This document shows positions 17,105 through 23,068 of a DNA stretch of 27,463 bases, in pieces. Origin of the DNA: a virus. Each line of letters begins with the position of its first letter. Position 1 is the first letter of the stretch. The DNA is taken from the IMG/VR virus record IMGVR_UViG_3300014202_000478, positions 1 to 27,463 of that record; one strand, 5' to 3'. The notes beneath the pieces are model-generated. The model was not told the origin of the DNA. It ran no database searches and saw nothing but the letters and a program-made list of their open reading frames with translations. The position numbers and the translations under genes were made by a program.

Positions 17105-17117
17105 ATTGCACCTGTAG

Positions 17118-17200
17118 TAGCCGAGGCGGGATTCGAACCCGCAAGCCCTAACGGGCGAGGGATTTTAAGTCCCTTGTGTATACCGTTCCACCACTCGGCC
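17118..17200 (-). tRNA. tRNA-Leu (TAA)
   Basis: GGCCGAG/CTCGGCT acceptor stem, AGGGA-CTTAAAA-TCCCT anticodon arm, long variable arm, GCGGG-TTCGAAT-CCCGC T arm. CCA not encoded. Confidence 0.95.
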
Positions 17201-21000: not shown

Positions 21001-21193
21001 AGAACTTCAACTGAATATCGCCCAATTCAGTTGCAATTTCCTTCTTGGTGGCATTGGTCATGCCCTTGCGGTAGCAAATCCATACTGCCCATTTGCCATG
21101 TTCGTTCATTTCAACTTTGGAACTCTCGAAGAATGGCTGTCTTTTTAAGAACTCGCTGTAATTTCTTTCCAATCTTTTTAACTTATCAAACAT
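20972..21193 (-). CDS. Hypothetical protein
   Basis: TAATG coupling to the upstream gene. Confidence 0.65.
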   Translation of the reverse strand: MFDKLKRLERNYSEFLKRQPFFESSKVEMNEHGKWAVWICYRKGMTNATKKEIATELGDIQLKFFMVDAETQK

Positions 21194-21558
21194 TATTGAA
21201 CCTTGTCTTCTTTACCCCTTACTTGGACATAAAACACAAAAGAGTTTGGTAAAGGCTGTCCTGTCTTTTTATCAGTTTGTTGATGATAACGCAAGAATAA
21301 TTTAGTATTTCCTTGGTCATAATTCAAGATATCTTTCAATCTTGATGCACATGCATTGATAAACTGGTGGCTTCCCGTAACTCTTAATCCATCATACATA
21401 TACGTCGAGCCACGGTACTCATCTGGAACAATATTCAGTGGCTGAATTGGGATAGATGAGGGAAGTGTCTTCCAAAATTGCACTATCTCCTTCTTTTTAG
21501 CCTTCCAGGGCTTTTGGGTAAATTCTGCTTGTTCGCACCAATTCTTGAAACTGAACAT
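21193..21558 (-). CDS. Hypothetical, probable late/virion protein
   Basis: Start moved to ATG 21558 (MFSFKNWCE); CATAAATA 4 nt upstream. Confidence 0.7.
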   Translation of the reverse strand: MFSFKNWCEQAEFTQKPWKAKKKEIVQFWKTLPSSIPIQPLNIVPDEYRGSTYMYDGLRVTGSHQFINACASRLKDILNYDQGNTKLFLRYHQQTDKKTGQPLPNSFVFYVQVRGKEDKVQ

Positions 21559-21571
21559 ATTGTATTTATGC

Positions 21572-21898
21572 CTAGTTAGCACTTTTATATAAAATTACCC
21601 AAAATGGATCGGAAGGTTGATTTATTTTGTCGTGTAGGACATAGAAATTCAGCCTGTGGAACTTTCTAGGTGCCTTTAAAACAGCTTCAATCCCAAAGTT
21701 GGAATAACGCAGGTGATGTGCTATTCCAACTTTGGGACCAAATTCTGAGGGACAAGCTGGCTGTTTTCTCTCAGGGAAAATAACTGGTAAAACGTTAGGC
21801 ATTTTATTAAACCATGCCTTGGTTTCTGACGAACTTTTTACCAGAACTAACTCCTGCTCTAAAATAGCCTCGCCTCGGTTTAGCCAATAATTCATCAT
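21572..21898 (-). CDS. Hypothetical protein
   Basis: 108-aa ORF in operon orientation. Confidence 0.65.
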   Translation of the reverse strand: MMNYWLNRGEAILEQELVLVKSSSETKAWFNKMPNVLPVIFPERKQPACPSEFGPKVGIAHHLRYSNFGIEAVLKAPRKFHRLNFYVLHDKINQPSDPFWVILYKSAN

Positions 21899-21914
21899 CG
21901 TACAGTATGTACGA

Positions 21915-22711
21915 TTATTGGTTGATTAATAGTTCAAATTGTCCCTTTTTCAATATTGCGTCTACATTGGACACCTTTTTGTTAAATCGGTGATCTGTAA
22001 CCCTATGTTCTAAAAGGTTATAAGTTCTAATCTTATTGCCGCGATTACCGTCCATGAGTTCCTTCCTCATTTGGGAGTAAACTGACTGCTCCTTATTCTG
22101 GAGATAGTCATTCACTTTCGCGGTAATAATCCTAGTGGCTTCACGTTTGTTGCTATGCTGGTCACGTCCATTAATGAATACTTGTATCCCTGTGGGGATA
22201 TGACGCATACGAACAGCGCTAGCTGTCTTATTTTGGTGCTGTCCACCTGGACCGTGACCGCATTGTGTGGTAACATCCAATTCGTTCTGAGGAATTGGTT
22301 TCTGAGTGTTATCAGGTGGCAACGGTAAGATAGCAACAGCCACTACGGATGTTTGCTTTCTTCCCCGCGTCTCTGTAGGAGGTATACGTTGAATAATATG
22401 CTTGCCAGTTTCGTGCTTAAAGAAGCGTCCTGCCCCTCTACCACTCACTTTGGCAACCACATGGCCATTTTCAGAATCCAAAATCTCTACAGCCAGAGCA
22501 TGAGCCACAGCATATTTCACATATGCAGCGAATAAGTCGTGGACAAAGAGCTTGGAGTCTGTGCCACCTTCACCGAATTGTATTTCTAAAATTATTTCCG
22601 AACTTTTGTCAAAGACAGTCTAGGAGCGGAGATTGGGCGGGAGTGGTAGCGGAGCTAAAGAGACACCATTTTCTGGCCATTTTCTTGCGATTTCCAATTT
22701 TTCTTCTTCAT
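21915..22711 (-). CDS. RF1-type peptide chain release factor lacking domain 1; 5' end requires recoding
   Basis: QRIPPTETRGRKQTS (PxT), GPGGQHQNKT (GGQ), IRTYN, RVTDHR. Homology extends upstream of the GTG at 22520 (DKSSEIILEIQFGEGGTDSKLFVHDLFAAY) to an in-frame TAG at 22622-22620. The ATG with SD AAGGAGA is at 22711 in another frame. Confidence 0.85.
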
Positions 22712-22741
22712 GATACTTTCTCCTTTGGTAATATATAGAAC

Positions 22742-23068
22742 ATGAAAACATTTCTTTTTTGGCTTTTCCTTTTCGCCTTGATCTGGATTCACTCCGTAGA
22801 TATGGAGCTTACCAGATACTATATAGGCAATCAATGGGAAAACGAAACCTTCCCATTAATGAGGATGTGCATTAAAGAATTTGGCATTTATAATGCCCTC
22901 TGGATCAGTAGAGTATTTAGCTACCTATTTTTCTTCTTCTGTTTCCTTCGCAGGAAAGAAGACAACATTGTATTCATGATGTTCCTTATCACTATAATTT
23001 ATTACACAGGTATGATCCCGTGGCTGTTTAACTTGGGTCTAATGGAATGGCCACTGCCCCAATGTTAA
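22742..23068 (+). CDS. Membrane protein
   Basis: Three hydrophobic segments; TATATA 4 nt upstream. Confidence 0.7.
   Translation: MKTFLFWLFLFALIWIHSVDMELTRYYIGNQWENETFPLMRMCIKEFGIYNALWISRVFSYLFFFFCFLRRKEDNIVFMMFLITIIYYTGMIPWLFNLGLMEWPLPQC

Follow-up and report, generated by a model that had tools for sequence, protein, structure and literature searches.

The window, a 27,463-nt stretch of viral DNA, belongs to a 103-kb contig (G000), a virus record estimated to be 21% complete. On its minus strand lies the sole RF-1 match of the contig, a release factor (RF) core of 231 aa (21915-22610; Pfam PCRF plus RF-1) that ends at its own TAA at 21917-21915. The RF frame offers no ATG, GTG or TTG 5' of the EIILEIQ segment, as far up as a TAG at 22622-22620, which closes this frame to a -1/+2 slip or to a start close to the first of two shift sites. 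All features of the leader are on the same strand. A Shine-Dalgarno (SD) sequence, AAGGAG (22720-22725), precedes ATG 22711, from which a Lys-rich ORF0 of 18 codons runs, by frame reading, to a TAG (22655-22711). The end of ORF0 forms shift site 1, CTT TAG C (22654-22660), with an internal SD-like GGTG (22664-22667) 3 nt 5' of the CTT. A +1 shift there, from CUU to UUU, would enter a middle frame of 15 codons (22609-22656), whose RNA is predicted to be unstructured and which ends at the TGA of shift site 2, CTT TGA C (22608-22614), 46 nt from the first; a second +1 shift would enter the RF frame. Assuming +1 at both sites, the product has 264 aa (18 leader, 15 middle and 231 RF-frame codons), and both of its junctions are regenerated when CTTT is read as one step. 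The coordinates that the earlier note had given for the SD, the ATG, both sites, the blocking TAG and the 264-aa product all hold on re-reading.

Between the RF gene and a divergent ORF lies a candidate phage promoter, TATATA (22732-22737, minus strand). It stands immediately 5' of the leader SD and is kept in 9 of the 11 aligned members of this phage's clade; TAWATA precedes 14 of 87 ORFs on the contig, against a background of 2.8%. The divergent ORF (22742-23068, plus strand; 108 aa) matches no known family, and its start region, head-to-head with the RF leader and kept in several relatives, shares the TATATA. The two ORFs at 21572-21898 and 21193-21582 (minus strand; 108 and 129 aa) likewise match no known family, and in most close relatives the RF gene is likewise followed by ORFs of these sizes, suggesting a possible operon. 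RF-gene neighbours comprise the divergent 108-aa ORF, a DUF2934 gene and a glycosyltransferase gene.

The phage uses the standard code. All three stops close long ORFs on the contig (74/34/13), TAA accounting for 74 of 121, and ARAGORN found no suppressor tRNA there, so stop-codon reassignment is ruled out, as is simple TAG readthrough in the RF frame, where the conserved start is absent. ARAGORN did report 18 tRNA genes on this partial contig, spanning 17117-52131 with one inside the window (17117-17200), and all are Leu (10), Ser (5) or Tyr (3). These are the long-variable-arm identities, and several of the Leu genes are just 76 nt. One is a tRNA-Leu(GAG), a reader of the CUU shift codon. 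Searching both strands of the 103-kb contig for CTT-stop pairs 20-90 nt apart, in the right frame and with an open middle, returned the pair described here and one other. The latter, on the minus strand at offsets 5557/5585 from the contig end, is a TAG then a TGA, 28 nt apart, with an open +1 middle frame and no C after the stops, and is probably a chance occurrence.

Shift-site signals and the encoded protein

In bacteria the prfB frameshift consensus is AGGGGG-N3-CTTT, a stop and C; TGA is the stop in 98.6% and TAG in 0 of 8,164 motifs (PMC12421855). Site 1 follows the prfB signature SD-N3-CTT-stop-C, and G at -7 and -4 is found in 15/15 site-1 contexts. Site 2 retains TGT-CTT-stop-C. Both sites have the slippery CTT-T with the stop followed by C, a C that is found at 13/15 first sites and 14/15 second sites among relatives. 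Strength of pairing to the anti-SD separates the two: the site-1 duplex has a median of -7.4 kcal/mol over loci (-5.4 in this phage) and the site-2 duplex a median of -0.9 kcal/mol (+0.1 in this phage, which has no internal SD there), compared with -10.2 kcal/mol for a reference Salmonella-like AGGGGG duplex. The description of the leader as two tandem prfB-style sites thus stands for the CTT-stop-C motif at both, holds weakly for the internal SD at site 1, and fails for an SD at site 2. Shifting at site 2 may be of low efficiency, as the internal SD is absent in this phage's clade. RNA folding around the sites was no better than in shuffled sequences (z +0.8 to +1.9), giving neither a stimulator nor a hop structure, and there was no match in Rfam.

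The RF core aligns to E. coli RF1 residues 110-341, and since the match starts at residue 110, domain 1 is absent; the leader, 33 residues long, does not correspond to it. An AlphaFold model (pLDDT 91) contains domains 2-4 of a class-I RF and is matched by Foldseek to ribosome-bound RF1 at TM 0.87-0.89. RF1 is the best match by both sequence and structure, although the protein falls below the family cut-offs: 205 bits against 423 for TIGR00019 (prfA), 156 against 370 for TIGR00020 (prfB) and 79 against 167 for TIGR03072 (prfH). The GGQ catalytic motif (22239-22247) is invariant in the family alignment, and an RF1-type PxT tripeptide, PPT (22374-22382), aligns to that of RF1 and is found in 85 of 101 family proteins. 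The RF1-type assignment, which the earlier note had based on PxT, is therefore supported by sequence and predicted fold. RF1 without domain 1 has been reported to be functional (PMC1586002). The best explanation of these features is that the gene would encode a functional, phage RF1-like class-I release factor lacking domain 1.

The decoding loop retains the RF1 pattern Q-R-x-P-x-T-E, with H193 often replaced by Q. At the position of RF1 I192 and RF2 R213 this phage has Lys (22356-22358, by alignment to RF1 and RF2), and 98 of 101 family proteins have K or R there, compared with 0 of 76 bacterial RF1. By alignment, then, the loop is a hybrid of the RF1 PxT with an RF2-like K/R. R213 of RF2 is implicated in rejecting a third-position G, and R213I raises UAG reading by RF2 (PMC7530605). 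In addition, the hairpin near RF1 156-161 is shortened by 5-6 residues, close to where the RF2 mutations E167K-E172K relax specificity. Given both the RF2-like residue and the shortened hairpin, PxT alone would seem insufficient for reading the specificity of this factor.

Frame relations in relatives

The two-stop arrangement is genuine and not an artefact. Both sites occur in the same frames in independent assemblies at 72-95% protein identity (L030/L031, L032, L033, L035-37, L165, L166 and L167-69), L033 being LR756511.1, a 595-kb uncultured phage that at 84% identity is the closest record in annotated collections. Logan contigs X1, X3 and X7, low-depth contigs of relatives from other runs, span the sites with no indel and no joint. 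X1 is ~95% identical over 21900-22901, and X7, built from RNA-library contigs, crosses both sites gap-free, although this is not proof of transcription.

We surveyed 60 non-redundant truncated-RF loci, drawn from collections of viral sequences, genomes and assemblies. Within 170 nt 5' of GxGG, a CTT-stop occurs 53 times at one +1 shift from the RF frame, 17 times at two +1 shifts and once in the RF frame itself, with 2.7 expected by chance for each frame. A downstream site, one +1 before the RF frame, is found at 52/60 loci. When any frame was allowed, 15 loci, this phage included, carried a further CTT-stop 15-100 nt 5' of site 2, and all 15 fell at a spacing of 1 mod 3, where chance predicts ~1.3 per class. 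The spacings take seven values (34, 37, 43, 46, 49, 52 and 70 nt). The middle frame is open in 15/15, shuffling giving an expected 9.6, and a sixteenth double-site locus, L273, brings this to 16/16; across the 16 loci the site-1 motif is CTT-TAG, CTT-TAA or CTT-TGA. Within the spacer, each of the 15 loci also has a stop in the RF frame, at seven offsets, where 5.0 would be expected to have one. This blocker is not universal: L273 has none, and the N-termini of about six more proteins suggest open RF frames. The start is equally consistent: at 14 of the 15 double-site loci an SD-led ATG lies in frame with site 1, and never in either of the other frames; the fifteenth, L259, has an ATG in that frame behind a weak SD. 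The length of ORF0 differs among close relatives in multiples of 3 nt. The survey thus recovers CTT-stop pairs in the same frame relation as in this phage, and so lend comparative support, from frame, spacing and the open middle frame, to the double +1 shift that the earlier note had proposed. Seven spacer lengths in one frame would be hard to obtain unless the spacer were translated.

Double-site genes are scattered on the family tree (9 changes, at least 3 of them forced by well-supported branches). This phage's clade holds 7 double-site and 4 single-site members, and in the latter the corresponding stretch is open from the ATG straight to site 2. Because 7 of the 16 double loci come from one clade, the counts above are not independent and their significance is overstated. 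As a control, similar motif pairs located elsewhere than at RF genes, found by DNA pattern in viral contigs, gave 52/8/6 over the three frame classes; coding repeats bias this control toward class 0. Among the 80 matches listed from the DNA-pattern scan of viral contigs there were no new RF loci, and the metagenome scan returned almost exclusively full-length bacterial RF1, which we took as controls. L154 and L271 were dropped as double-site candidates, as their spacing exceeds 100 nt, no start lies in frame and a good ATG is present in the single-shift frame.

Several variants were seen among the remaining loci. The single site of L135 reads GTT TGA and not CTT TGA, with the frame relation unchanged. 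L038, L123, L136 and L201 have no CTT-stop and carry an in-frame TGA a few codons past the start, which makes them candidates for gating by readthrough. A crude check of coding density in these four showed no clear TGA recoding, and the flanks of L136 gain most when TAG is read as sense. The in-frame TGA in these site-less relatives suggests selection for a stop-sensitive checkpoint, whatever its construction.

Stop identity, proposed gating and alternative readings

We consider it very probable, from the frame relations described, that the factor is decoded by two serial prfB-type +1 shifts, each in competition with termination. Ribosomes would start at ATG 22711 and translate 18 codons, whereupon, once CUU occupies the P site and UAG the A site, the majority would terminate. 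A fraction, aided by the internal SD, would slip +1 and read the 15 middle codons to CUU-UGA-C, where again most would terminate and a fraction would slip into the RF frame. As output would be the product of two escape probabilities, the factor would be expected at a low level that rises steeply as termination capacity drops, and in this phage its synthesis would need slow termination at both UAG and UGA. Bacteria suffer toxicity when an RF is expressed without control (PMC12421855). Such toxicity would give a reason for a tight cap, one that a second site would tighten further, as has been argued for Mimivirus eRF1.

Three other routes to the product, or to none, were weighed against the double shift. 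A hop like that of T4 gene 60, from the CUU of site 1 to the UUU of site 2 with the spacer skipped, would yield 249 aa; it has in its favour the near-matched take-off and landing codons, the stop right behind take-off and a gap near gene 60's 50 nt. However, a hop would leave the frame of the gap unconstrained, whereas all seven spacings are 1 mod 3 (a chance of roughly (1/3)^6 = 0.001 for an unconstrained gap) and the middle is always open; CUU and UUU are a near match only, and the gap is open and 1 mod 3 in 16/16 loci. There is also no take-off hairpin, the nascent peptide is variable at 5-18 residues, and site 2 retains a full CTT-stop-C that would suffice alone in single-site relatives, so that we regard hopping as very unlikely. 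Still less probable is a main route that starts at the weak-SD ATG (22678-22680) and shifts just once, at site 2, to give 254 aa. This ATG is present and in the middle frame, but lies within a 21-nt insertion private to this phage and absent from L030, and six close double-site relatives keep both sites without any such SD-led ATG. At best, this ATG would let a minor share of synthesis leak past site 1. That the arrangement reflects an assembly error, a decaying gene or an ATA/ATT start just 5' of ILEI is barely credible. Annotated products are indeed N-terminally clipped, and L004, L122 and L151 start in frame right at the conserved strand, yet both sites recur in independent assemblies, motifs and predicted fold are intact, no SD precedes ILEI, and the shift signal is kept in 52/60 loci. 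Nor did a 46-nt insertion between direct repeats find support as the source of site 1, the shared sequence being just TCTTT and spacer lengths varying. Thus the alternatives raised in the earlier note (the ATG at 22680, the hop and the insertion) are each disfavoured.

What the gates sense is less clear than the double shift itself, and here the identity of the stops is informative. The 16 pairs are TAG/TGA (6), TAA/TGA (3), TGA/TGA (3), TAG/TAG (3) and TAA/TAG (1). Site 1 is therefore TAG or TAA in 13/16 and site 2 is TGA in 12/16 (Fisher p=0.004, uncorrected for kinship), and TGA followed by TAG or TAA never occurs. This order is what would be expected if the double shift had been selected as a gate requiring poor termination by both RF1 and RF2, with product feedback at site 1 and a sensor of host RF2 at site 2, the logic that the earlier note had put forward. 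The conserved PxT and a site-2 TGA in all 11 members of this phage's clade are also in its favour. Against it, the strict TAG/TGA pair makes up just 6 of the 16, pairs of TGA/TGA, TAG/TAG or TAA/TAG make up 7, and most of the family has a single TGA. An RF1-readable stop followed by TGA outnumbers the reverse by 9 to 0, but this bias shrinks to 4 to 0 (p=0.125) when this phage's clade is counted once and is not significant outside that clade (p=0.33). The gate logic fits this genome and a tendency in the family, and is not a rule; as the reason for the double shift we rate it unlikely, although not negligible. Some close relatives have TAA/TGA or TGA/TGA although their decoding loop is identical, and no link was found in the family between decoding-loop residues and stop identity. 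Any feedback of the product on UAG would be further complicated by the Lys at the R213 position, where RF2 discriminates against G as third base.

Among the 37 single sites, TGA is the commonest stop (25), followed by TAG (11) and TAA (1), and 8 of the 11 TAG sites belong to one cyanobacterial/Melainabacterial clade. Since a PxT factor should not read UGA, simple autoregulation does not account for all of the family. Over the family, what is conserved is the presence of one or two putative stop-sensing gates, not the identity of the stop. One way out, rather doubtful in our estimation, would be a UAA-preferring factor for which the TAG and TGA gates report host RF1 and RF2 only, the protein serving as back-up for the phage's genes, mostly UAA-ended, during a shortage of host factors. 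PxT would limit the second base to A, and the RF2-like K/R, nearly invariant here and absent from bacterial RF1, would disfavour G at the third, a role in which R213 is implicated (PMC7530605). TAA closes 74/121 long ORFs of the contig and 43/60 of the RF genes themselves, and this expected stop of the factor appears at one single site only. However, to assume that a residue does the same in two RF scaffolds is a weak argument, TAA stands at site 1 in 4/16 double loci, and the cyanobacterial/Melainabacterial copies with the same R all have TAG, which resembles feedback.

Alternatively, and we offer this as a tentative proposal, the short factor may be a natural broad-specificity RF (UAA/UAG/UGA) that limits how much of itself is made, by means of one or two +1 gates in series with interchangeable stops. 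If so, the TAG-then-TGA pair of this phage would sense total termination capacity through two inputs. As to the signal, feedback by such a broad-specificity factor on any stop is a serious candidate, falling just short of probable; RF1-type feedback at site 1 combined with host-RF2 sensing at site 2 may apply but seems unlikely, and sensing of host factors alone a shade more so.

Relation to known systems

The prfB frameshift has hitherto been treated as single, UGA-specific and confined to RF2. Like bacterial prfB, the phage gene encodes a class-I RF and has a CTT-stop-C close to its 5' end, a short ORF0 ending at the stop and, at site 1, a weak internal SD 3 nt before the CTT. Unlike prfB, it has two serial sites, uses TAG and TAA, and lacks an SD at site 2; its sites lie within a leader of free length that replaces domain 1, and the product is RF1-like (PPT), domain-1-less and phage-borne, where prfB encodes RF2, with SPF. 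With bacterial RF1 (prfA; TIGR00019) it shares PxT, GGQ and the decoding-loop Q and TS, and differs in lacking domain 1, in scoring below cut-off, in K/R for I192 and often Q for H193, in the 5-6-residue deletion near 156-161 and in its regulation, as bacterial prfA shows no programmed shift (PMC12421855). PrfH/RFH (PMC1586002; TIGR03072) is also a class-I RF without domain 1 that starts at the same strand, but the phage factor has PxT and not SXY, scores 79 bits against 167, and lacks an RtcB-like partner gene immediately 5' of its own.

Among published systems, the closest analogue is the eRF1 of Mimivirus (R726) and Megavirus (mg280), a viral class-I RF decoded through two serial internal stops (PMC3521657), for which the double stop was proposed to give stronger autoregulatory buffering (Jeudy et al. 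2012, PMC3521657). That factor is of the eukaryote/archaea type and belongs to an amoebal virus, and its decoding combines readthrough with frameshift on an unrelated signal. Retroviral Gag-Pro-Pol (PMC5009743) resembles the phage gene in that the final product needs two sequential programmed shifts, but these are -1 shifts on heptamers with RNA structures, at fixed ratios, far apart and not stop-sensing. T4 gene 60 shares the gap of ~50 nt and the stop behind the take-off codon, whereas the phage leader has neither hairpin nor fixed nascent peptide and its gap frame is open and conserved.

The prfB cassette, serial recoding in Mimivirus eRF1 and double -1 shifts in retroviruses are thus known already. 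In the literature searched, mostly without subscription journals, tandem prfB-type sites, their amber or ochre versions and their use before a domain-1-less RF1-like factor were not found, nor was any double-shift RF, in agreement with the earlier note. A UAG/RF1 counterpart of in-frame regulation was reportedly called unknown in a 2016 review. What this locus adds is a pair that mixes TAG with TGA, an analysis of stop order and a decoding loop of hybrid type. In huge phages the device appears doubled, with all three stops, before an RF1-like factor. These genes offer natural cassettes for studying how serial recoding may sharpen feedback and how CUU-stop shifting proceeds without an SD, and they make the question of a natural omnipotent bacterial RF directly testable on the 264-aa protein. 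On a practical note, gene callers annotate N-terminally clipped products, and databases lose the N-terminus throughout this family of short factors.

Two further groups were encountered in the survey. L262-L270 form a clade of apparently chromosomal short-RF copies in Obscuribacterales, Melainabacteria and one cyanobacterial MAG, on contigs of up to 1.1 Mb, each with a single CTT TAG C; this amber prfB-type cassette in bacteria is missing from the published prfB/prfA survey. In many smaller phages (L007-L029) there is, as a gene apart, a short ArfB-like one of ~110-130 aa with GGQ only.
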